A DNA stretch of 64,000 nt from contig CAVOKF010000003.1 in NCBI GenBank assembly GCA_963696385.1, positions 32,001 to 96,000 on the forward strand, in the 5' to 3' direction. Origin of the DNA: an uncultured delta proteobacterium (GTDB taxonomy: Bacteria; Myxococcota_A; Polyangia; Polyangiales; Polyangiaceae). Positions 1 to 12,324 of this stretch are shown here, piece after piece (position 1 is the stretch's first letter; each line of letters opens with the position of its first letter). The notes beneath the pieces are model-generated. The model made no database searches and was not told the DNA's origin. It saw only the letters and a list, made by a program, of their open reading frames with translations. Made by a program: the position numbers and the translations under genes.

Positions 1-752
1 GGAAATGGAAATGGTCCCCCTCGGGAACTTGCCGGAATTCCGGCTTGAGCACGAAAATCCATGCTGCTGCCGCCGTATGGCTGGATGAACGTTTGGTTCT
101 GCGTGGGCCGCTCCGCTCTGTGAATGCGCCCCGCGATCACGTCGATCGCCTCGCCCCCATATCTGTTGGCGATGAAGTGACCAACCGCCACGTCGTCGGG
201 CATGGTCTTGGGATAGGTGGACAGGATGTGTTCCCGGCAGTTCGCCAGGTCCGCCACGATATCCCTTGAGATGAGAAATCCGGACCCCGACACGAACGGG
301 AATCCGCTCGCGCCGTCGACCATCACGGCGCCCTGATAGACCCCCGTGCGAGGGAGGGTCTTCGCGTACTTCTCGAGTCCGGCTACATCCACGTAGCTCG
401 ATGCACAAACCGTGTAGACGAAATCGTAGTCCCGCATGAGGTGCCGAAATGCGACCAAGCGTTTTTGCAAAACGCAGTTCGCCTGGTCGGAAAATACGTC
501 CGCGGCGCCACACAAAATAATGTCTCCGGAGACGCAGAATTCACCCTCGGCGAGCTCTGGCTTCTCCGTCGAAATGAGCGCGTCGACCTCGACGAGGCTC
601 GGACCGGCTCCGTGGGCGCCGTAAACATAGAAAATGTCGGCGTGGGAGGGGACTCTTGCCCACGTCGCGCGGATCGTTTGGATGCAGCGCTGATAGTGCG
701 TGAGCCTACATCCGAGAACCAAGATTGCGATCTTCACGTCGGGCGTGGACAT
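1..752 (-). CDS. GT31/galactosyltransferase-like glycosyltransferase (runs off left edge)
   Basis: Manual translation from ATG 752 (GGAGG RBS): MSTPDVKIAILVLGC...IRATW...YDFVYTVCASSYVD...FVSGSGFLISRD...PDDVAVG, typical GT-A/GT31 motifs. Absent from the ORF track because it has no stop in the window. Confidence 0.65.
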   Translation of the reverse strand, partial: MSTPDVKIAILVLGCRLTHYQRCIQTIRATWARVPSHADIFYVYGAHGAGPSLVEVDALISTEKPELAEGEFCVSGDIILCGAADVFSDQANCVLQKRLVAFRHLMRDYDFVYTVCASSYVDVAGLEKYAKTLPRTGVYQGAVMVDGASGFPFVSGSGFLISRDIVADLANCREHILSTYPKTMPDDVAVGHFIANRYGGEAIDVIAGRIHRAERPTQNQTFIQPYGGSSMDFRAQAGIPASSRGGPFPF

Positions 753-895
753 GGCCTCCGCTTTTTCGACTGTCCGTATACCACAGTCTTGTCGTGACAA
801 AATCCGCGTCGCGGCGGTCGGCGGCTGGGTGTGCAGCAAGTGGCCGTCCTGGCCTCCGAGACAGACCGCAAACGGCTTGCGGATCGCTCATTCCG

Positions 896-1879
896 TCATC
901 GGGTCGGGCGCGGCGGGCCGTCGACGCGGGGCGCGAGGCACTCGCGCCGCACGAGCGCCGAGGCTTGGCCGACGTCCGCGAGCCAGTCGGATCCCATGCG
1001 AACTTCGTAGGTGCACGCTCGGTCGACGAGCGCCCCGATGAGCCGCAGCTGCTCCGCGGACCGCGCGACCCCGTCGGCCGCAACGAGCGCGCACGAAGCC
1101 AGCGCCCTGCCGAAGGCCTCCGCGGGCCCCGTCGTGACGACGCGTGTGTGCGGCTCGACGGTCACGCACGGAAAGAGGACGATGTCGGGGGTCGCCATCT
1201 CCGGCGCGAGATTCCAGGGGAGCGCCTCGAGCGGGACTTCGCCCTTTCCGCTCGCATCGGGCTCGCCGCGAGTCAGGGCGGGGAATGCGGCGGCCGTCGC
1301 GTCGCCGAGATGAAACGGACGGGGAAAGGCGAGGATCGTCCCGCGCCCGGCACGCTCGGTGAGAAACAGCGCGTCATCGCCGAGGTAGCGCGCGCCCTCG
1401 TCGAGGAGCGAGAGGGTCACCGTCGACTTGCCCGCCCCCGAATCGCCGAGGACGAGCACCCGCAGGCCGTCCCCTCGTATCAGGGCGCCGCCGTGGAGGT
1501 GAAAGATCCCCTGGTGTCGGAGGGCAATCGAGAGAGCGATGAAGAGCGTCGTGCCGGCGAAGCCCCGGGGGTCGAGCCGGGCGATGTCTCCCTCGACGTC
1601 GATGCGCCGGCCGTCGTGCGCGACGAGGACGCGCGCACCCGGCGTGACGAGCAGGAGAGCGCCTCTTCTCTGCAGGGCGCGCACGTTGCCCTGGAAGAAC
1701 GACGGGCGAAACCCGCTTGCGTCGAGCACGCCTCGGTCTGGCTCGATCTGGATCGTCACGTCGGCTGCGCCGTTCGCCGTGGACGCGGCAAAGCCCCCCA
1801 GGAGCCGCGCGACGGGATCGCGCGGCAACGCGGGCGCGCGCCACTCGACGCGCAGTCCGTAGACGTCGACCGCGGGCAC
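896..1879 (-). CDS. HPr kinase-related kinase (RiPP/lasso-cluster type)
   Basis: HLHGGAL, Walker A GDSGAGKST, LGDDALF motif. Confidence 0.8.
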   Translation of the reverse strand: MPAVDVYGLRVEWRAPALPRDPVARLLGGFAASTANGAADVTIQIEPDRGVLDASGFRPSFFQGNVRALQRRGALLLVTPGARVLVAHDGRRIDVEGDIARLDPRGFAGTTLFIALSIALRHQGIFHLHGGALIRGDGLRVLVLGDSGAGKSTVTLSLLDEGARYLGDDALFLTERAGRGTILAFPRPFHLGDATAAAFPALTRGEPDASGKGEVPLEALPWNLAPEMATPDIVLFPCVTVEPHTRVVTTGPAEAFGRALASCALVAADGVARSAEQLRLIGALVDRACTYEVRMGSDWLADVGQASALVRRECLAPRVDGPPRPTR

Positions 1880-1897
1880 AGTGCGCCTCGCTCGCTC

Positions 1898-2173
1898 TCA
1901 GTCGCTCGTCACCAGTCCCTCGACAAGCATCTCCCGGAGCACCGGTTCGAGGTCGCGCCGCACGGTGTCGCGATCGACGCGGAAGCGTTGCGCGAGACGT
2001 TCGGCGAGAACCTGGCGCGTCGTGCCCGTCTGGGCGCTGAGGGCGCTCCAAGCGGCCACGCCGGTCGCGTTGATATCGTAATAGAACTTGGTGCCGAGAT
2101 GCAGGAGGACACCCGTGCCGTCCCGGAGCTCGGTCAGGATCACCTCGGGGCTGGCGCGATAGCTGGGCTCCAT
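1898..2173 (-). CDS. PqqD-family RiPP recognition element (lasso B1-like)
   Basis: 91 aa; ELRDGTGVLLHLGTKFYYDINATGVAAWSAL...LAQRFRVDRDTVRRDLEPVLREMLVEGLV. Confidence 0.88.
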   Translation of the reverse strand: MEPSYRASPEVILTELRDGTGVLLHLGTKFYYDINATGVAAWSALSAQTGTTRQVLAERLAQRFRVDRDTVRRDLEPVLREMLVEGLVTSD

Positions 2174-2246
2174 GGCGCCCGAACCTAACACGCGGGCGGG
2201 GCGTTCTCGGTCGCGAACGAACGCCCTCGAGGCAACCGAAGCGAGC

Positions 2247-2624
2247 TCACGCGAAGCGAAACGTGACAACGAGTCGCGGGTCGGGGTCTTCGCCTACCGG
2301 CGCCCCGCCAATCTCGACCCACGCGTGGCCGGCTCCCGGGTCGTCCTGACGGACCCCCATGACGAACTCTGCGGGCAGACCCGCGCTCCGGAGCGCGACC
2401 CAGCGCGCGATCGCGCGATACAAGCACGTGTCGTGAGCGCCGAGGCACCGAGCCAGGCGCTCGGAGCGCGCCAGCGCCTGACCGGCGCGCGCTCGCGTGA
2501 CCCGGCCGGCGCGCGGAGTGATCGTGCGGAAGAGTGCGGGCAGCGACAGCGCGCGCATCCCGAACGGTAAGAGGCATCGCATCGATACGAGGTGAGCGTC
2601 GAGGACGAGGCCGCGCACGTTCAC
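2247..2624 (-). CDS. Lasso B2-like leader peptidase (transglutaminase-like)
   Basis: TCLYRAIA...VMGV...GHAWVE (Cys-His-acid triad); GTG start overlaps the radical SAM stop (GTGA). Confidence 0.85.
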   Translation of the reverse strand: MNVRGLVLDAHLVSMRCLLPFGMRALSLPALFRTITPRAGRVTRARAGQALARSERLARCLGAHDTCLYRAIARWVALRSAGLPAEFVMGVRQDDPGAGHAWVEIGGAPVGEDPDPRLVVTFRFA

Positions 2625-3709
2625 CGCCGGATCGGCAATCTTGTGCGCGCCGGCGCCTGCCCCTTCGGCTCGCCCCACGCGCCGACCCACCGCTCTCGCC
2701 CTGCGCCCGGCCCCGCAGCGCCGTCGTCGGCCCAGTGGGGCTTGCCAAAGTGCTTCAGGCACCAGTTGCACGGGAGGTGGTCCCACGCGTCGAGCTCGCC
2801 CTCGGCGAGCTGCCGCACCTTCGCCACCTGCGTTCTGTGAATCAAACCGAGGAGCTTGATGTGGGCCTCGGCGATCGTCGTCGTCCGCAGGTCCGCGACG
2901 ACGTCGCTCTCGCCGCTCGGCGGGCTCTCCGATCGCGGAATGCCTGCATGCTGACAGCAGAGATTCAGGTGGCCGGTCACGTCGACGTGGAGCTGCTCGG
3001 AGCGAAACGGCTCGCAGACGTGAAAGGGGTGCTTTTGCGGCCACCCCTCGGGGAGGCTGACCGCCATCTTGAGCGTCGCGGCGAGGCGATCGACGCGATC
3101 GGCGATGGATTGCCAGCCGGACACGGGCAAGAACAGCGCATCGTCGTGGGACGTGCCGGTCGGTTGGAGCACGGCGAACGAGGCACGCTCGGCGCCAAGC
3201 TGGCTCGCCAGGAGGCCGAACGCCTCGACCTGGTGGTGGTTGACGGCGTTCACGACCATCTGGAGCACGAACGGGATCCCGTGGGCGACCGCGAGCGTCG
3301 CGGCGGTCATCACTTCGCGAAAGCTGCCCTTGCCGCGGATCCGGTCGTGCGTGGCTTCGTCGGCGCCGTCGAGGCTAAGATAGACGTGCCGCATCGACGA
3401 CCGACGCGGCGGGCTGTCGTCGAGCCGGTCCATCAGCCACCCGAAAGTCCGGCCGTTCGTGACGATGTGCCAGGTGAGGCCGCGCTCGGCGATCGCGTCG
3501 ACGGCGTCGACGAAGCGCGGGTAGAGCGTGGGTTCTCCGCCCGTCATCGCCACGTGCGTCGTCTTGTACGTGCGGGCGACCTGGTCGAGCGCACTCGTGA
3601 AGACTTCGAAGTCCAGATCGAGCGGCGCCCGGCTCGGATCCCGCAGGCAATGCTTGCAATCGAGCTGGCAGCGATCGGTCAGGTGGAAGGCGAGGTTGCA
3701 GACGGCCAC
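2621..3709 (-). CDS. Radical SAM enzyme with C-terminal SPASM/twitch-like domain
   Basis: CQLDCKHC, TGGEP, VTNG, LSLDG, HDRIRGKGSF; C-terminal CEPF...VDVTGHLNLCC...CNWC. Confidence 0.92.
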   Translation of the reverse strand: MAVCNLAFHLTDRCQLDCKHCLRDPSRAPLDLDFEVFTSALDQVARTYKTTHVAMTGGEPTLYPRFVDAVDAIAERGLTWHIVTNGRTFGWLMDRLDDSPPRRSSMRHVYLSLDGADEATHDRIRGKGSFREVMTAATLAVAHGIPFVLQMVVNAVNHHQVEAFGLLASQLGAERASFAVLQPTGTSHDDALFLPVSGWQSIADRVDRLAATLKMAVSLPEGWPQKHPFHVCEPFRSEQLHVDVTGHLNLCCQHAGIPRSESPPSGESDVVADLRTTTIAEAHIKLLGLIHRTQVAKVRQLAEGELDAWDHLPCNWCLKHFGKPHWADDGAAGPGAGRERWVGAWGEPKGQAPARTRLPIRR

Positions 3710-3855
3710 GAGGAGCTCCTGACGCGTGCGTGTCGACGGGCCGTCGACCGCCCACCGACCTTACTCCGCACCGTCTTGTCGCGCGGCGTCCTTCTTCAGC
3801 CGAGTTCGATAGCGCCGCTCGCTTTCTTCGAGCTCATTACCGATGCTTCCTCCGG

Positions 3856-4998
3856 ATGCACGCGCCCCCTCCCGCTCGACCGCCCACGCCCGCCGAGCGA
3901 TCTCTTCTCCTGGCCACCGCCGGGCTCGCTCCCGGATGGGGAGGCCCGACGGGCCCGCTCGACTGGGACTTCCTCGTTCCTTATGCCTGCAGACATCTGC
4001 TTCTTCCTGCCCTGGGAAGCGCGGCGCTCCGCTCGGATCCGGCATTCGCCCTGCTCGGGATTCCTCCGGACGCGCGCGGCGCGATGAGGGACGCGGCGAT
4101 CCACAACGAGATGCAAAATCATGTGCTTCTCGTCGATCTCGCGGAGGCCGTCTGCGCCCTGGATCAAGCCGGAATCGGAAGCATCGCGCTCAAGGGCGCG
4201 GGGTTGATCGCACGCTTTGCCGACCTCTTGCGCACGCGTCACACGGACGACATCGATCTCTGGGTCGAGCCGGGGTGCGTCTTCGAGGCCGACCGGATTC
4301 TCCGCGCCCGCGGTTATGGCGATCTCGTGCACGCGTCCGAGCCGGTTCCACGCTACGACGGATCTGCCCGCTCGGCGCCCTTGCGGCAGGAAGCCCACCA
4401 ACTGCCGGTGCTGGTGAGCGTGCGGGGCACGCCGCTCGAGATCCATCGCCGTCCGCCGGCAGCGCCAATCGCGACCGCCGCTCGCTGGGCGCAGGCCCTC
4501 GCCCGCGCCGAGCACGTCATCGTGCACGGCGTACGGGTCCGGATTCGGGATGCGGGGTCGATGCTCCTCGATCTCTGCACCCACGTCGTCGTCCATCACG
4601 GCGCGAAGCCCTGCCTATGGCCGCGTCATCTGCTCGATGTGGAGACGCTCCTCGGGGGTCACCAGCACCTCTTCGCGGAGGCCGCGGCGGCCGCTCGCAT
4701 CGCCGACCGGATCGCGCTCGGGGTCACCTCCGCCGTGCGCGGGCAGGTCCTCTCATCCGCCTCCGAGCCGCTGGCGCGCCGGCTGGTCCTCCCTCTCAAG
4801 TCCTTCGTTGGATGGGGTTGGTACAGCCTGGCCGAGCAAATCCTTGGCTACGCGGCAAGAGGGCCAGGGAGCCTGGCGCGTGCGCTCTGGCCCTCGACGT
4901 CGTTCCTCCGCGCGCGCGGCTTCGACCCCGACCGCGGGCGCCTGCGAGCCCATCTGGCGCGCGCACGCGATGTTGTCGCGAGGGCAGGTGCGCGATGA
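3856..4998 (+). CDS. Nucleotidyltransferase family protein (NTP_transf_5-like)
   Basis: IALKGAGL...RHTDDIDLWV...LEIH...HLLDV. Start uncertain: the ORF opens at 3730. Confidence 0.8.
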   Translation: MHAPPPARPPTPAERSLLLATAGLAPGWGGPTGPLDWDFLVPYACRHLLLPALGSAALRSDPAFALLGIPPDARGAMRDAAIHNEMQNHVLLVDLAEAVCALDQAGIGSIALKGAGLIARFADLLRTRHTDDIDLWVEPGCVFEADRILRARGYGDLVHASEPVPRYDGSARSAPLRQEAHQLPVLVSVRGTPLEIHRRPPAAPIATAARWAQALARAEHVIVHGVRVRIRDAGSMLLDLCTHVVVHHGAKPCLWPRHLLDVETLLGGHQHLFAEAAAAARIADRIALGVTSAVRGQVLSSASEPLARRLVLPLKSFVGWGWYSLAEQILGYAARGPGSLARALWPSTSFLRARGFDPDRGRLRAHLARARDVVARAGAR

Positions 4999-5133
4999 GT
5001 CACCGCGCCAGACGAGCGCGGCGTCCCGATTCTCGCGAGTGAACGTGTTGCGGACGACACGGGCTCGACGCACGGAAGCGGTTACGGCAAGTTAGACAGA
5101 GGGCGGCGGGGCCGAGGGTTCGCGACGGCGTGC

Positions 5134-5817
5134 ATGGAGGCGTGGGGGGGTCGATGCAATCGCTCAAGATACTTTTCGGCGCGAGGTTTCCCTCCGCCTG
5201 GTGCGCCTGCTCCAGCGGCGCGCCCGAGCGGTGAATCTCGCAAATCTCTTTCGAGCGCGCGGGCCGCACCGGGCGCGAGCCACACCCCGCCCATTGTCGA
5301 CGGCAATGTGGACGTCGTCCACGGCACCTCGATCAGCGCGTACTTCGACATGACCGATCTGGGCGGCGGGTGGACCGAGGTCCTCGACCAGGACCTCAAC
5401 GTCGCGCCCGGCTACGAGAGCAAGACGAGCTGGGCCGGGCCGCTCAACATCGGGGCGCCAAACGCCGGACAGTATTCGATCGTGAACCTGCTCGCCGCGA
5501 TCCACAGCGGGACGAACTACACTTCCTCAATCACTACCCTCTCCTCATACCTACAGTACCCTCTCCTCAAATACCTACAGTATCCTCTCCTCAATACCTT
5601 CGAGGATCCGAGGACCCTCAACAACACGCTCCCGACGCTCGTCGGAAGCGTCGTCGAGAGTCCGGCCAGGCAGACAGGCGGCTGTGCAAGATCCCCCTGG
5701 AGCGCTATCTACCTGTCGTCCCAATCGGACTACCTGATCGCCGAGGGGACCCGCAGCTGCGGGTTCTTTGCGGTCGGCACGAACGGGGAATGGAACGGGG
5801 CAGTTCCCTGCGAATAA
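5134..5817 (+). pseudogene. Fibrinogen-like (YCDxxxxGGGW) domain fragment, probably degenerate
   Basis: AYFDMTDLGGGWTEV motif; low-complexity N-terminus and an internal tandem duplication. Confidence 0.45.
5535..5599 (+). repeat. About 23-bp imperfect tandem repeat, nearly 3 copies
   Basis: TACCCTCTCCTCA(AA)TACCTACAG units give YLQYPLLKYLQYPLL. Confidence 0.85.
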
Positions 5818-5848
5818 CCAGCCGACCTCACCCCGAGAAGGACTTGTC

Positions 5849-6019
5849 ATGAACCCCAGAGACCAGGCGCCCCTCGAAGCCGAAAGCCACGAAGACTCCG
5901 AAGACGACGCCCGCGCGCCCTACGAGAGGCCGCGTCTCACGAAGAAGCGATCGGTGGCACGCGTCACCCTCTTCTCCGGACACGGGGCCATGGGCGCATC
6001 GGGCCTGACGAGCTCCTGA
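5849..6019 (+). CDS. RiPP precursor peptide, 56 aa, lasso-type leader
   Basis: RBS GAGAAGGA; MNPRDQ...YERPRLTKKRSVARVTL|FSGHGAMGASGLTSS; YxxPxL motif with Thr at -2 in canonical spacing. Confidence 0.8.
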   Translation: MNPRDQAPLEAESHEDSEDDARAPYERPRLTKKRSVARVTLFSGHGAMGASGLTSS

Positions 6020-6054
6020 ACGCCAGCGGCTCCGCCAGGAGAAGGACCCCCTCG

Positions 6055-6330
6055 AGGTGCGTCGATTCTCTCTCCGTCGGCGAGCGCCAGCCGATCGCCC
6101 TTGGCCCGCCTGCTCTGCGCGGATGCGTCGCTCTTCCTCCTCGACGATCCCGACGCCAACCTCAGATCGCGCGGGCATCGCCCTCGTGGCTGGGCTCATT
6201 CGCGAGCTCGAGGGACGCGCCATGGGCGCGTTTGCCGCACGCACGCCGGAGCTCCTCGAGGTGGCTGATCGCGTCGTCGTCCTGAGCGGCGGCCGGGTGG
6301 TCGAACCGGGCCGGATGCACTCGGCCGCGA
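6055..6330 (+). pseudogene. ABC transporter ATPase C-terminal remnant (frameshifted)
   Basis: Across frames: LSVGERQPIAL / ARLLCADASLFLLDDPDANL / DRAGIALV...ADRVVVLSGGRVVE; no Walker A or membrane domain. Confidence 0.7.
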
Positions 6331-6342
6331 GGGCGCAGAGGG

Positions 6343-7377
6343 TCAGCGGCGTGGCTGAAAGCTCGCCTGGCCGTTCACGCTGGGACCGTTCGTGAGTTGA
6401 AACGGCAGCCGGGCGCCGGGGATCCCCAGGAGCGTGAGCTCGGGGTTGTCGGCCGCGTAGCGCGTGCTCGTGACAACGAGCCGACTGCCATCCGGCGAGA
6501 ACGCCGGCTCGGAGTCTCCCTGCACGGAGAACGGCGTGATCGCGTTCGTGCCCGTCGTGAAGAACACGACCTGGGTGGACGTTCCGCCCCCCGAGCCCGC
6601 GGCCGTTTCGGTGAAGGCGATCGTCGCGCCGTCGGGCGAGACTGCCGGGCCACCAAGGATGCCGGCCCCCGTCGTCACCTGCGCAAGCCCACCTCCATCA
6701 GGTTGTACCGACCACACATCGAATCCTCCCCCGTCAGCGCGATCGCTCGAGAAGTAGACGACGCTGCCATCGGGCGCCCAGGCTGGGGAGTTGTCGCGGA
6801 AGCCGCCCGCAGTAAGCGCGGCGGCCGTTCCACCCTCAGCCGGAATCGTGTAGAGGCCGCCAGGTCCTCCCACGACCGACCACGCGCCGTCCGGTGACCA
6901 GGCGGGAGAGACCACGTCCGGGAGGCCGGTCTCGATCGAGACGATCGCCGCGCTCGCGACGTCGACGACGAAGAGCCGATACAAGCCCGCGTCGCTCCCG
7001 CCGTTCGAGGCGAACGCGAGCGTCACGCCGTCCGGCGACCAGGCCGGGAAGAGATCGGAGCCGGGCTGCCGCACGATCGGGTGAAGGTCGGTGCCGTCGT
7101 CGTGAACGAGGTAGAGATCGAAGTCGCCGGTCCGGTTCGAGGTGAAGGCGATCCACGGACCGCCGGCACCCGCGTCGGTCGACGGAGTGTCCGCGTCGTC
7201 GACCGCGGGTTGCACCGATGCGGCGCCTTCCGCAAGGCCATCCGCGTCCGGGGGTTGATCGTTCGAGGTGTCGAGCCCCGGACGGGCTGCGTCGAGCGTG
7301 CCACTCGCATCCGGGCTACCGTGGCCGCACCCCGCGACCCCGAGTAGTGCGCAAGTCAGCGATGTCCCCACCCTCAT
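6343..7377 (-). CDS. TolB-like PD40 beta-propeller lipoprotein
   Basis: Lipobox VAGC; repeated PAWSPDG / PAFSPDG motifs. Confidence 0.85.
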   Translation of the reverse strand: MRVGTSLTCALLGVAGCGHGSPDASGTLDAARPGLDTSNDQPPDADGLAEGAASVQPAVDDADTPSTDAGAGGPWIAFTSNRTGDFDLYLVHDDGTDLHPIVRQPGSDLFPAWSPDGVTLAFASNGGSDAGLYRLFVVDVASAAIVSIETGLPDVVSPAWSPDGAWSVVGGPGGLYTIPAEGGTAAALTAGGFRDNSPAWAPDGSVVYFSSDRADGGGFDVWSVQPDGGGLAQVTTGAGILGGPAVSPDGATIAFTETAAGSGGGTSTQVVFFTTGTNAITPFSVQGDSEPAFSPDGSRLVVTSTRYAADNPELTLLGIPGARLPFQLTNGPSVNGQASFQPRR

Positions 7378-7453
7378 CGAGCGCCCCCGCGAGACGTATA
7401 CCTCCCAATCGAGGAGCCCGTCAAACAAGAGCCGCGCCGAGGTGCCTCGCACA

Positions 7454-7759
7454 TCACGCGCCGTCAGTCCGTCCGAAGTTCAATCGGCTTCGCGGGGCGC
7501 GCGCGATGTCGTTGCGAGGGCCTTGCGTCGCGAGACCAGTGGCTGACGCGACGCATCGTTTCCCTGGCGCGCTGAACCGCACGATCGAGGGGTGAAAATC
7601 GCCCCATTCGCGCGGTGTGCGGGGCGGGAGGATCACGCCGAGCACGAGTTCGCCCCGAGCGTTGACCTTCGGCAGAACGCGGACGTCTGCGAAGCCCTTG
7701 GATTTCGCGAGGGCTTCGAGGGCCCCCATCAACACGCGCACGCCGAGCGATAGCTCCAT
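7454..7759 (-). CDS. Small hypothetical protein, paralog of 49420..49599
   Basis: First 54 aa identical to the ORF at 49420. Confidence 0.55.
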   Translation of the reverse strand: MELSLGVRVLMGALEALAKSKGFADVRVLPKVNARGELVLGVILPPRTPREWGDFHPSIVRFSAPGKRCVASATGLATQGPRNDIARAPRSRLNFGRTDGA

Positions 7760-8172: not shown

Positions 8173-8760
8173 CTATCCGGGCAGATGCATTCTGCCCTCG
8201 ACGACGACCGTTTCGCCGCCGACTCGTACGCCCGTGATCACGCCCTCGTGCTTGTCCGACTCGACGTCGAGCAGACTGGGGCGCCCCATCTCGAATCCTT
8301 GCTCGACACGCCATCGAAATGTGCCCGATTCGCGTGGATCTCGAGCGCCGAGGTAGGCTCCGAGAGCGACGCACGCCGCGCCCGTCGCCGGATCCTCGGC
8401 GATGCCGATCCCGGGCGCAAACATCCGCGCCCGCACGTCCGAGGCAGCCCGTTCGGCATCGCGCGAAAAGACAAAGACGTTGTGCGCCCACTGGCCGCGC
8501 AGCACCGCTTCCCACACCTCGAGTCGAATGCGCGCCCTGGCTACGGCTGCCCGATCGCGCAGTGGAACGAACAAGAAGGGCACGCCGCAGGAGACGGCCT
8601 CCGGCGACCAAATGCCGTCGAGCAGGTCGTCAAGATCGAGCGAGCGAACTTCCGCGAGGCGTGCGCGCGGCGGGGCAGGGGGACCGATCTCGGGCAACTT
8701 CGCGACCGAGAGCTGCTCGAAGACCGGGACACCGCCGAGAGTCCGAATGACGACCGGCAC
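8173..8760 (-). pseudogene. PhzF-family isomerase, 5'-truncated
   Basis: VSCGVPFLFVPL, ARMFAPGIGIAEDPATGAA, EQGFEMGRPS; the N-terminal third is missing. Confidence 0.75.
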
Positions 8761-8813
8761 GACACCGACGTAGGCCGAATTGTGTCCGGGCGGGCGGGGA
8801 ACTTCAGTCTAAG

Positions 8814-10976: not shown

Positions 10977-11118
10977 CCGGTAAAAATACGGCTCTCCTGG
11001 CCGTCGCGCAAACGGGGGCCCGTGTCGAGCCACGCACGCAACCTGTGACGTCCCTGCGCGCGCTTCAGCTTGAACGGCAAGCGCACGAAGTTTTCGCCGC
11101 TCGACCCCAGAGATCCCC

Positions 11119-12324
11119 GTGGACAATCTGGCCGGCGCGCGGGAGTGTGCGCGCGTCGCCCACGAGTTTTTGCGCAGGGGCGGAGCCGTGCCCAAGGTGC
11201 GCCGCGAAACGGTTCGCGAGTGGTTCGGACGCATGCACGCGTCCAAGCAGGCAAAGGGCCTCGCAACAGTTAAGGATATGCGCGGTCGTGCGGCGCGATG
11301 GGTGTTCCCGGTCTTCGGCGACAAGGGCATGTGCGACGTCACGCGTGTCGACGGTGAGCGGCTCGTCGGTCAGCTGGACGCGGCCGTCGCCGGGTTCATG
11401 AAGAATGGGCCAGGGAACGGGAGGCTCGCCCCCTCGACCGCGGCGAATGTCTGGGGCGACGTCCAACACGCATTCGATGAGGCTGTCAACGCCAAGGATC
11501 CCCGCCTGCGCGTGCTTCACGCGAACCCGCTCCACGGCGTGCGCGGACCGGATGGCGGAGAGAACCGTCAGGGGCAAATCCTGTACTCCGACGAACTGCT
11601 GGCACTGCTCCGTGGCGAGCCCGCCGCCGACCGCGGCCTGGGCGTGCCACTTTATCGGCGCTTAGTCTACGCGATGGCCGTCTACACGAAGGCTCGCGCC
11701 TCCGAGCTCGAAGCGCTGACGGCGGCCGACGTGGACCTGAAGCATCAGACGATCACGATTGCCAAGCAGAGCGATCCGACCACGCAGGGTCGGAAAGGTA
11801 CGAAGCAGACGAAGACGAAGCGCATCCGCGCCATCGATATCGAGCCGAACCTCTTTCAACTGGTGGCGGACCTTGTCGCGCATCCCCAAGGGAAAGGGAC
11901 ACGGCTGCTCCACATGCCGCCTCCCGAAGACCGCGCCAAGCTTCTACGAAAAGACCTGCGCAAGGTGGGCGTCACGCGGGCCGCGCTATTCGTCGAGCAC
12001 GACCCCCTTCAGCGGGCGATCGTCTTCCACGATCTTCGCGACACGGGCCTCACGCATATGGCGGTCCGCGGTGACTCGCCGATCCTCATCCAGTGGGCCG
12101 GCGGACACACGGACTTCAAGACCACGCAGAGCTACATCGCGCGGGGCCAAACCGAGCGCCGACGCATCGGCGATCCCCTTCCGCCGCTTCCGCCAGACCT
12201 CTTGGCCGCTCGAGCGAGTTTAGGATGCGTTTCGGATTCATCCGAAACTATAGATGCTAAGTTCCCGTTCTCACTCGGGAATGTTGTGACCCCAACGGGA
12301 ATTGAACCCGTGTTACCGACGTGA
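11119..12324 (+). CDS. Tyrosine recombinase/integrase at tRNA-Glu (N-terminus possibly truncated)
   Basis: YTKARASEL, FHDLRDTG, GGHTDFKTTQSY; the 3' end reads into the tRNA-Glu 3' half. Confidence 0.88.
   Translation: MDNLAGARECARVAHEFLRRGGAVPKVRRETVREWFGRMHASKQAKGLATVKDMRGRAARWVFPVFGDKGMCDVTRVDGERLVGQLDAAVAGFMKNGPGNGRLAPSTAANVWGDVQHAFDEAVNAKDPRLRVLHANPLHGVRGPDGGENRQGQILYSDELLALLRGEPAADRGLGVPLYRRLVYAMAVYTKARASELEALTAADVDLKHQTITIAKQSDPTTQGRKGTKQTKTKRIRAIDIEPNLFQLVADLVAHPQGKGTRLLHMPPPEDRAKLLRKDLRKVGVTRAALFVEHDPLQRAIVFHDLRDTGLTHMAVRGDSPILIQWAGGHTDFKTTQSYIARGQTERRRIGDPLPPLPPDLLAARASLGCVSDSSETIDAKFPFSLGNVVTPTGIEPVLPT

Follow-up and report, generated by a model that had tools for sequence, protein, structure and literature searches.

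The subject of this work is a gene cluster at the left end of a 64,000-nucleotide stretch of DNA (G000:C3:32001-96000, hereafter the window) from an uncultured delta proteobacterium of the family Polyangiaceae. The cluster, whose genes lie mainly within bases 1-7500, combines the leader-processing parts of lasso peptide biosynthesis with a radical S-adenosylmethionine (rSAM) enzyme, and we found no lasso cyclase to go with them. On the minus strand, open reading frames (ORFs) and family scans reveal, in this order, genes for the rSAM enzyme, a B2 leader peptidase, a PqqD-family recognition element (RRE) for peptides synthesized ribosomally and modified post-translationally (RiPPs), an HPrK-like kinase, and a glycosyltransferase-like protein; a nucleotidyltransferase and a short precursor peptide are encoded on the plus strand (Table 1). 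These genes had been named in an earlier reading of the sequence (the original prediction), and each was recovered where that reading had placed it using ORFs, Pfam, and NCBIfam. Its claim that the rSAM gene is translationally coupled to the peptidase gene also held, the stop codon of the former and the GTG start of the latter overlapping as GTGA at 2624-2621. One point of arrangement did not hold up: the precursor gene is not adjacent to the rSAM gene here, although it is adjacent in most relatives.

Table 1 Features of the cluster in the window (positions are those of the window)
Feature	Position	Strand	Basis
GT-A-like N-terminal domain (Fringe/GT31-like, sub-threshold) of a protein of ~598 aa	1-752, runs off the window	-	Pfam
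HPrK-like peptide kinase, 327 aa	896-1879	-	PF07475 and TIGR04352 (both sub-threshold), motif spacing
Discrete PqqD-family RRE (B1-like)	1898-2269	-	PF05402
Lasso-type B2 cysteine leader peptidase, 125 aa	2247-2624	-	PF13471, NF033537
Radical SAM enzyme, 362 aa	2621-3709	-	PF04055
NTP_transf_5 nucleotidyltransferase, divergent from the rSAM gene	3730-4998	+	PF14907
Precursor peptide, 56 aa	5849-6019	+	ORF, conserved in relatives
PD40/TolB-like beta-propeller lipoprotein, accessory	6343-7452	-	PF07676, lipobox-like LLGVAGC
Possible decayed ABC exporter remains, on both sides of the precursor gene	5359-6172	+	Weak tblastn matches

Leader-processing proteins, precursor and missing cyclase

The peptidase matched PF13471 with 62.9 bits, the single match to that family in its own genome, and the lasso B2 model NF033537 with 51.8-55.1 bits (cut-off 33). 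The lasso B2 model was also the sole model matched by all 16 of the family's B2 members tested, and the catalytic Cys and His that characterize lasso B2 proteins are present as Cys67 and His100, both invariant in the family. The PqqD protein, whose true start is possibly Met33, carries the domain expected of a lasso B1/RRE (PF05402, 47.7 bits). In NCBIfam it matched lasso PqqD models only, with scores below their cut-offs (39.8 vs 70), and its best relative of solved structure is the lasso B1 protein TbiB1 (5v1u, E 2.5e-7).

The precursor ORF begins at an ATG preceded at a distance of 6 nt by a GAGAAGGA box and ends at a TGA. Its leader ends in PYERPRLTKKRSVARVTL, and the predicted 15-residue core is FSGHGAMGASGLTSS. 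A profile built from the first precursors gave 59 matches, of which 55 were distinct; the core statistics reported here refer to these 55. Every one of them contains Tyr/Phe-xx-Pro-x-[LIVMC]-x9-Thr-[Leu/Met], with the Thr invariant and followed by Leu in 54, and the leader consensus is PYE(A/P)PR(L/I/V)xKKRSVARATL. Cleavage after that Leu would put the motif at -17, -14, -12, and -2, which is the spacing of lasso leaders (PMC10368454), and the combination of YxxPxL at -17 to -12 with Thr at -2 is found in 55/55. The lasso B1/B2 parts and the lasso-type leader (Tyr-17, Pro-14, Leu-12, Thr-2) recognized in the original prediction are thus real.

The cores are 11-20 residues long (15 residues in 21 of the 55) and consist of 23% Gly, 15% Ser, 11% Thr, and 10% Met; Lys or Arg occurs in 2, Asp or Glu at any position in 13, and Cys in 7, with one subgroup having two Cys (e.g. 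xSGEECVFDPPGTC). The first residue of the core is variable (F, L, V, G, S, T, A, Q, Y, I), usually Phe, Leu, or Val; the second is Ser or Thr in 50/55, and the third Gly, Ala, or Pro, likewise in 50/55. No cross-linkable pair of residues is conserved among the 55 cores, nor is any aromatic, Lys, or acidic residue. An Asp or Glu at positions 7-9 is present in only 6 of them, and the window core has no acidic residue anywhere, its lack of Asp/Glu at these positions having been pointed out from the window sequence. (Note that one relative, L031 at G102:C2:137001-156000, has two rSAM and two HPrK-like genes, and that a candidate peptide encoded there, ending in RFTLSGAGGWDIPP, has no YxxPxL motif.)

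Two things that a lasso pathway has are therefore lacking from what we found, namely the Asp/Glu acceptor at core positions 7-9 and a macrolactam cyclase (C). No Asn synthase is encoded in the 16 kb fetched to the left of base 1 (L004), and tblastn with three AsnB-type proteins detected no Asn-synthase-like protein in C3:1-110000. Matches to PF00733 in this genome are confined to contig C8, where the strong match is AsnB-type, scoring 423 bits against TIGR01536 (cut-off 267) and 165 bits against the lasso cyclase model NF033535 (cut-off 525). The search of this genome, which is 96.4% complete, thus brought up no lasso cyclase, and the missing part could hold one. In none of ten cassette-bearing genomes does a PF00733 match come closer than 11 kb; the nearest, in G403, is AsnB-type and lies among sugar genes. 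Finally, an Asn-synthase-like protein is absent from 87 of the 89 related loci; the proteins in the two exceptions, L074 and L076, are AsnB-type (they start with MCG and pass TIGR01536), and these two loci lack the remaining cassette genes. The cyclase that the original prediction had described as not visible was therefore found neither just outside the window nor in homologous loci. (Note that L074:1841-5182 and L076:1491-4831 are nearly identical metagenome loci with a lone rSAM gene of the family, 50% identical, that adjoins a divergent AsnB-type amidotransferase gene and an ATP-binding cassette (ABC) transporter gene, without precursor, B2, PqqD, or kinase.)

Modifying enzymes and conservation of the cassette

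The rSAM enzyme matched PF04055 with 78.2 bits. Because the protein opens directly with its CxxxCxxC motif (residues 14-21), it has no RRE of its own. Comparison of 27 homologs identified five invariant Cys in the C-terminal part (232, 251, 252, 314, and 317), which would fit one auxiliary cluster. The label SPASM that had been given to this enzyme was not borne out, since there is no Pfam match to the SPASM domain (PF13186) at E≤0.01 and the invariant C-terminal Cys number five, compared with the seven of the SPASM motif. Its best relatives in NCBIfam are peptide maturases, namely ScmF, MftC, PqqE, and the sactipeptide maturases (PqqE 70 bits vs cut-off 381; MftC 75 vs 265), and the nearest sequence of solved structure is PqqE (6c8v, E 5.4e-17). 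When an AlphaFold model (pLDDT 87) was compared with known structures using Foldseek, BlsE came first (E 6.6e-13, TMq 0.60) with DesII and viperins close behind; SuiB, SkfB, CteB, and PqqE scored as well as BlsE, the top E-values being nearly equal at ~1e-12. The modeled fold resembles twitch and SPASM enzymes equally, which places the enzyme in the SPASM/twitch group, and the structural matches do not indicate its reaction. (Note that we considered and dropped an identity with Haft's SynChlorMet cassette, which also pairs a rSAM enzyme with PqqD and an HPrK-like protein; a literature search on SynChlorMet found no paper. ScmF is the best NCBIfam match of the rSAM enzyme, but with 83.9 bits against a cut-off of 400. 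The archaeal relatives of the rSAM enzyme, 24-33% identical, are not SynChlorMet cassettes either: Scm scores at L013 are not near the cut-off, and the neighboring proteins have no family.)

The kinase fell below threshold for both PF07475 (25.7 bits vs cut-off 33.3) and TIGR04352 (27.7 bits), and matched the HPrK structure 1jb1 in the PDB with an E-value of 3.9e-4. Membership in the HPr-rel-A system, of which we take TIGR04352 and TIGR04353 to be families, was rejected, the cut-off for TIGR04352 being 200 and the PqqD protein having no match to TIGR04353. The P-loop (GDSGAGKS) and the DD pair of the kinase are intact, and the GxxGxGK[ST] form of the P-loop recurs in 25 of 29 high-scoring segment pairs with kinase homologs; moreover, the spacing of G145, G148, G150, K151, S152, D168, and D169 is that of the motif in BsfK, the kinase of the bsf lasso cluster (PMC10368454). 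The nucleotidyltransferase, whose start is uncertain (Met43 is possible), matched PF14907 with 83.8 bits and has the conserved hKG...DxDh motif. The leftmost gene, the last in the minus-strand run and 57 nt downstream of the kinase gene, extends 1044 bases beyond the left end of the window and is fused to an NAD-dependent sugar epimerase/dehydratase (145.6 bits). Its glycosyltransferase part stayed below the gathering scores of both Fringe (PF02434, 18.4 bits vs 21) and Galactosyl_T (PF01762, 14.6 vs 23), so that the designation GT31 is no more than a lead. The gene was seen only in the same-genus relatives L008 and L034 and not in other family loci.

We compiled 76 family loci (rSAM at least 41% identical) from genomes and one metagenome scan, with four near-duplicates removed. 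In a collection of 5.8 billion proteins the rSAM enzyme has 475 relatives at E≤1e-10; the best 120 of these are all at least 51% identical and include, as named sources, Polyangium aurulentum, P. jinanense, Minicystis, Byssovorax, and metagenome-assembled genomes labeled 'Deltaproteobacteria'. The distribution is patchy: 3 of 41 genomes of relatives and 8 of 401 genomes of the class, or 8 of 162 genera, have the family (the present genome is included in both). The usual gene order is precursor-rSAM-B2-PqqD-kinase. For 49 of the 63 loci with at least 250 nt of upstream sequence, a precursor encoded on the strand of the rSAM gene ends no more than 500 nt upstream of it, and B2, PqqD, and kinase are all present in 15 of the 18 family loci that have 3 kb or more on either flank. 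Pfam scans of 18 related loci (101 + 73 long ORFs, filtered by G+C content at third codon positions, GC3, and of at least 250 aa only) detected NTP_transf_5 in 13, and a further locus outside this set, L009, has a tblastn match to the nucleotidyltransferase, a method that underestimates the presence of this gene. ABC_tran was detected in 11 of the 18, compared with only weak remnants in the window. In relatives, the cassette is neighbored by polysaccharide genes, namely those for Wzz/GNVR kinases, GT2 and GT4 glycosyltransferases, epimerases, UDP-glucose dehydrogenases, a sulfotransferase, and Wzy_C. In the G038 cassette a sulfotransferase (PF13469, 101.5 bits) is encoded at L021:11145-12176 on the minus strand, with the rSAM gene on one side and the kinase gene on the other, and suggests that sulfation is a further tailoring step in that relative. 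(Note that an Hsp70/DnaK-like gene lies directly upstream of the ABC-nucleotidyltransferase-precursor-rSAM run at L010:1969-3942, L042:2-1273, and L043:1-1161, and not at the window cluster.)

In this genome all six cassette genes are intact, with no frameshift relative to L008, the closest named relative (96-98.5% nucleotide identity over the cassette genes). Relative to L008, the ratio of nonsynonymous to synonymous substitution rates (dN/dS) lay between 0.19 (rSAM gene; precursor, 0.23) and 0.69 (kinase), from 7-48 substitutions per gene. Four peat RNA libraries contain contigs, 95-99% alike, that cover parts of the glycosyltransferase, PqqD/B2, rSAM, nucleotidyltransferase, and PD40 genes, and one such contig (5735-6034) contains the precursor ORF in full; where the window lacks such cover (e.g. 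1001-1750), this is no evidence of silence. The ABC exporter appears to have been lost from this copy. Exporters of related loci gave tblastn matches with E-values of 0.002, 0.07, 0.14, and 0.31, in pieces at 5359-5739 (N-terminal) and 6101-6172 (Walker-B-like), and a suspected remnant at 6009-6395 matched nothing in Pfam; no close exporter homolog was found near the cassette, the best in the genome, on contig C8, being ~30% identical. An open frame at 5134-5817 on the plus strand (GC3 0.77) contains the direct repeat YLQYPLLK/YLQYPLLN and, over a portion of its length, shares 36% identity with the N-terminal portion of the L028 ABC exporter (E 0.002); this frame is a probable gene remnant.

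Proposed pathway and its alternatives

We consider it probable, if well short of certain, that the cluster is a functional, cyclase-less offshoot of phosphorylated lasso pathways in which a PqqE-like rSAM enzyme occupies the place where the cyclase would sit. Because the cassette and its precursor are conserved in other genomes and in metagenomes, the combination of genes seen in the window is more than chance; its carriers are soil myxobacteria. The product is probably a small modified peptide of a kind not previously characterized.

The gene content, the conserved cassette, the leader motif, the catalytic residues, and the lack of a cyclase are observed here, and we infer every chemical step of the course that we propose. 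The discrete PqqD protein would bind the 56-aa precursor through Tyr-17 and Pro-14 together with Leu-12, as suggested by its homology to TbiB1 and by the exact motif spacing, and the rSAM enzyme, which without an RRE would need such a PqqD-type adaptor, would modify the leader-bound core. Since the cores share no conserved cross-linkable pair of residues, the rSAM enzyme would most likely abstract a hydrogen independently of any partner residue, leading either to epimerization at C-alpha or to oxidation at the conserved hydrophobic-Ser/Thr-Gly motif of the N-terminus; we think it less likely that a cross-link closes a ring. The kinase is predicted to phosphorylate the Ser or Thr at core position 2, by analogy with BsfK and with LppK of the LPP clusters described below, which act on Ser3, and the NTP_transf_5 enzyme, here possibly with the glycosyltransferase-epimerase, may add to the phosphate in the way suggested by PsmN of the pseudomycoidin pathway. 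The same analogies, with BsfK, LppK, and PsmK/PsmN, make plausible the earlier suggestion that the peptide is possibly decorated with phosphate and with sugar or nucleotide (PMC10368454, PMC13381572, PMC9266682). Cleavage by the B2 cysteine protease after Thr-Leu, as the motif spacing suggests, would release a neutral peptide of ~15 residues, which in relatives would be exported by the ABC transporter.

Several points weigh against this proposal. The kinase site would be at position 2, compared with Ser3 in Bsf and LPP, BsfK reportedly never acting on Thr2 of its substrate (PMC10368454), and a Ser or Thr is missing from position 2 in 5 of the 55 cores. The best Foldseek match of the rSAM enzyme, BlsE, and those that follow it, DesII and the viperins, act on sugar nucleotides and not on peptides. 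Three of the 18 long loci (L029, L074, and L076) lack B2, PqqD, and kinase. In the present genome the precursor gene is 2.1 kb from the rSAM gene and on the opposite strand, and the exporter seems decayed. Lastly, the substitutions behind the dN/dS values are few, and the RNA-library contigs may be DNA carry-over, one of them bridging two divergent gene starts.

The structural matches to BlsE, DesII, and viperins also bear on a different assignment of the rSAM enzyme, namely that the peptide is linear and only phosphorylated or glycosylated (as in LPP, with B2 in place of the signal peptidase SpI) and that the rSAM enzyme makes or alters a sugar or nucleotide for the nucleotidyltransferase and glycosyltransferases or for the neighboring polysaccharide. 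The setting is in keeping with this assignment, the cassette lying among polysaccharide genes in relatives and beside glycosyltransferases and an epimerase here, and LPP clusters likewise being located in capsule loci (PMC13381572). We nevertheless think it unlikely: in 49 of 63 loci the precursor gene stands immediately upstream of, and in the same orientation as, the rSAM gene, the closest relatives in sequence are peptide maturases (ScmF, MftC, PqqE, and the sactipeptide enzymes, with PqqE nearest in the PDB), SuiB, SkfB, CteB, and PqqE match the model as well as BlsE does, and the rSAM enzyme, lacking an RRE, always travels with a discrete PqqD protein.

The original prediction was that lasso leader-processing parts have been recruited for a scaffold cross-linked by the rSAM enzyme, a ring or cross-link that it forms in the core standing in for the lasso macrolactam. 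The leader-processing parts named in this statement are real. As for the cross-link, the rSAM gene does occupy the cyclase's place in the order precursor-rSAM-B2-PqqD-kinase, most characterized rSAM/SPASM-twitch maturases of RiPPs form cross-links, and the two-Cys subgroup of cores could supply partners; yet 48 of the 55 cores have no Cys, aromatic residues, Lys, Asp, and Glu are unconserved, position 1 is variable, the window core FSGHGAMGASGLTSS contains no obvious pair of residues, and the enzyme has no full SPASM motif. We thus regard the cross-link as without basis and rate the reading that requires it as improbable. That this is a decaying lasso cluster which has lost its cyclase and makes nothing would accommodate the apparently decayed exporter and the displaced precursor, but it is barely credible given that the same cyclase-less cassette occurs in several families of the class and on dozens of metagenome contigs, that the cores as a rule never had the lasso Asp/Glu, that the six genes are intact relative to L008 with dN/dS below 1, and that lasso clusters have no rSAM gene to begin with.

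A stronger form of the proposal that the cluster is a functional offshoot of phosphorylated lasso pathways can be stated, which we put forward tentatively and hold to be rather doubtful. It is that the family constitutes a new class of RiPP, in which the rSAM enzyme installs the class-defining modification, the ancestral toolkit of the phosphorylated lasso peptides (B1, B2, kinase, nucleotidyltransferase, and exporter) having been kept and the ATP-dependent cyclase swapped for radical chemistry. In its boldest version, with which the observations are compatible, the rSAM enzyme would oxidize or radicalize the hydrophobic-Ser/Thr-Gly N-terminus and the amine freed by B2 would then close a small heterocycle at the N-terminus, which would account for the joint conservation of leader cleavage and the Ser/Thr at position 2; the product, decorated with phosphate and sugar, would act in myxobacterial exopolysaccharide or biofilm biology. 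If the rSAM enzyme acts on the peptide at all, the cassette represents an uncharacterized family of ribosomal natural products with more than 100 sequence clusters, including some from cultured Polyangium species, and shows how a RiPP pathway can evolve by exchange of its class-defining enzyme with leader recognition, cleavage, and tailoring retained. A 15-residue core and six genes make a concrete experimental system. With it one could address how rSAM enzymes act on peptides that are rich in Gly, Ser, Thr, and Met and lack Cys or aromatic partners, and for what reason polysaccharide loci harbor phosphorylated peptide pathways, which the LPP study leaves open (PMC13381572).

Neighboring genes and known relatives

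The PD40 lipoprotein gene (PF07676, 122.3 bits) next to the precursor gene recurs in eight other loci (L029, L031, L036, L058, L066, L079, L082, and L083), where it adjoins the rSAM gene or the precursor gene and, in L082, sits between the two. Beyond it lie a minus-strand PhzF-like ORF (8176-8808) that matches profile positions 95-279 of 281 only and may be truncated and, just outside the cluster, a plus-strand gene for a phage-type integrase (11074-12321); L028 has an integrase 3 kb from its cassette. To the left of the window, L004:5548-14966 (window -10452 to -1034) contains what looks like a separate system for peptide or protein glycosylation. It encodes two PF11397 'GlcNAc' glycosyltransferases, a PF13640 2OG-Fe(II) oxygenase, a 673-aa weakly O-FucT-like protein, and two PqqD-domain proteins of ~400 aa, with the PqqD domain N-terminal in one and C-terminal in the other. 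We take PF11397 to be the Skp1 hydroxyproline GlcNAc-transferase family and PF13640 to include prolyl hydroxylases. The two PqqD proteins resemble protein-atlas clusters of whose members 55% have PF23452 HPAT (the hydroxyproline O-arabinosyltransferase family), and HPAT was not seen when Pfam was run on the two fusion proteins themselves. Directly upstream of the gene for the 441-aa PqqD fusion is a plus-strand frame of 169 codons without ATG (L004:7390-7896, window -8610 to -8104; GC3 0.78), which encodes first a hydrophobic stretch and then Pro/Thr/Ser repeats resembling PTASPTFK (a sub-threshold Pfam match to PT repeat, 18.3 bits). It is possible that its product is a substrate for RRE-guided prolyl hydroxylation and O-glycosylation.

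The division of labor in the cluster resembles that of PqqE with PqqD and of MftC with MftB, in which a rSAM maturase depends on a separate peptide chaperone of the PqqD family: here, too, an RRE-less rSAM enzyme of the SPASM/twitch group is accompanied by a discrete PqqD protein. Unlike PqqE and MftC, the enzyme scores far below the cut-offs of both and has only five conserved C-terminal Cys; unlike their substrates, the precursor has neither a Glu/Tyr pair nor a C-terminal Val-Tyr; and unlike those systems, the cassette adds a protease, a kinase, and a nucleotidyltransferase. Pairs of a lasso-type RRE gene and a rSAM gene have been met before: the RRE-Finder report of 2020 mentions ~300 lasso-type RREs adjoining rSAM genes and calls them false positives (PMC7470986). 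These pairs are like the present cassette in that an RRE matching a lasso model stands next to a rSAM enzyme with no cyclase, and are reported to lack a leader peptidase, in contrast to the conserved B2 found here (PMC7470986).

Cyclase-less clusters were described more recently as the LPP clusters of Bacillota (Popov et al., Nat Commun 2026), to which phylum they are restricted according to their authors (PMC13381572). They are patchily distributed, lie in capsule loci, and encode a lasso-like RRE that binds a YxxP leader, an HprK-like kinase (LppK) that polyphosphorylates Ser3 of the core, an NTP transferase, an exporter, plus a signal peptidase of archaeal type; the final product is given as unknown, the precursors have 35-200 aa, and the cores are long (45 aa in the example) (PMC13381572). 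The present family shares with LPP the lack of a cyclase, the set of discrete RRE, HprK-like kinase, and NTP transferase by which LPP clusters are recognized, and the polysaccharide-locus setting; to the MsbA-like ABC exporter of LPP may correspond the ABC_tran proteins of 11 of 18 relatives, of which the window has only weak possible remnants, and the Ser/Thr at position 2 in 50 of 55 cores would be compatible with phosphorylation near the cleavage site as in LPP. It differs in having a lasso B2 protein in place of the signal peptidase (the LPP-type model TIGR02228 had no match at E≤0.01 in this genome, to which that search was confined), in its cores of 11-20 aa, and in the rSAM enzyme, the word 'radical' not occurring in the LPP paper (PMC13381572). 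In the literature searched, which left subscription journals mostly outside its coverage, so that a precedent in print is possible, we found no description of a rSAM-bearing, cyclase-less B1/B2 cluster. The view that this is not a characterized class therefore holds for the rSAM-bearing, B2-using form and not otherwise, a cyclase-less relative having since been described in LPP.

Phosphorylated lasso clusters are represented by the bsf cluster of Bradymonas sediminis (Duan et al. 2023), with genes A, B1, B2, C, D, K, and N, whose kinase BsfK acts on Ser3 (PMC10368454), and also include the paeninodin and pseudomycoidin types (PMC9266682, PMC6993621), in the latter of which PsmK phosphorylates and PsmN then glycosylates a Ser (PMC9266682). 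With these clusters the present family shares a YxxPxL leader at -17 to -12 together with a residue at -2 that B1 and B2 read, a discrete B1, a discrete B2, an HPrK-like kinase with G-x2-G-x-GKS-x15-DD, a nucleotidyltransferase of the NTP_transf_5 type, an ABC exporter (here in relatives only), and a predicted kinase target beside the cleavage site. Unlike them, it has no cyclase, and its cores as a rule have neither Asp/Glu at positions 7-9 nor Gly1; every member has the rSAM enzyme, with its gene mostly adjoining that of the precursor, and Ser/Thr is conserved at position 2 instead of 3. In terms of gene content, the family is thus the bsf set minus the cyclase plus a rSAM enzyme.

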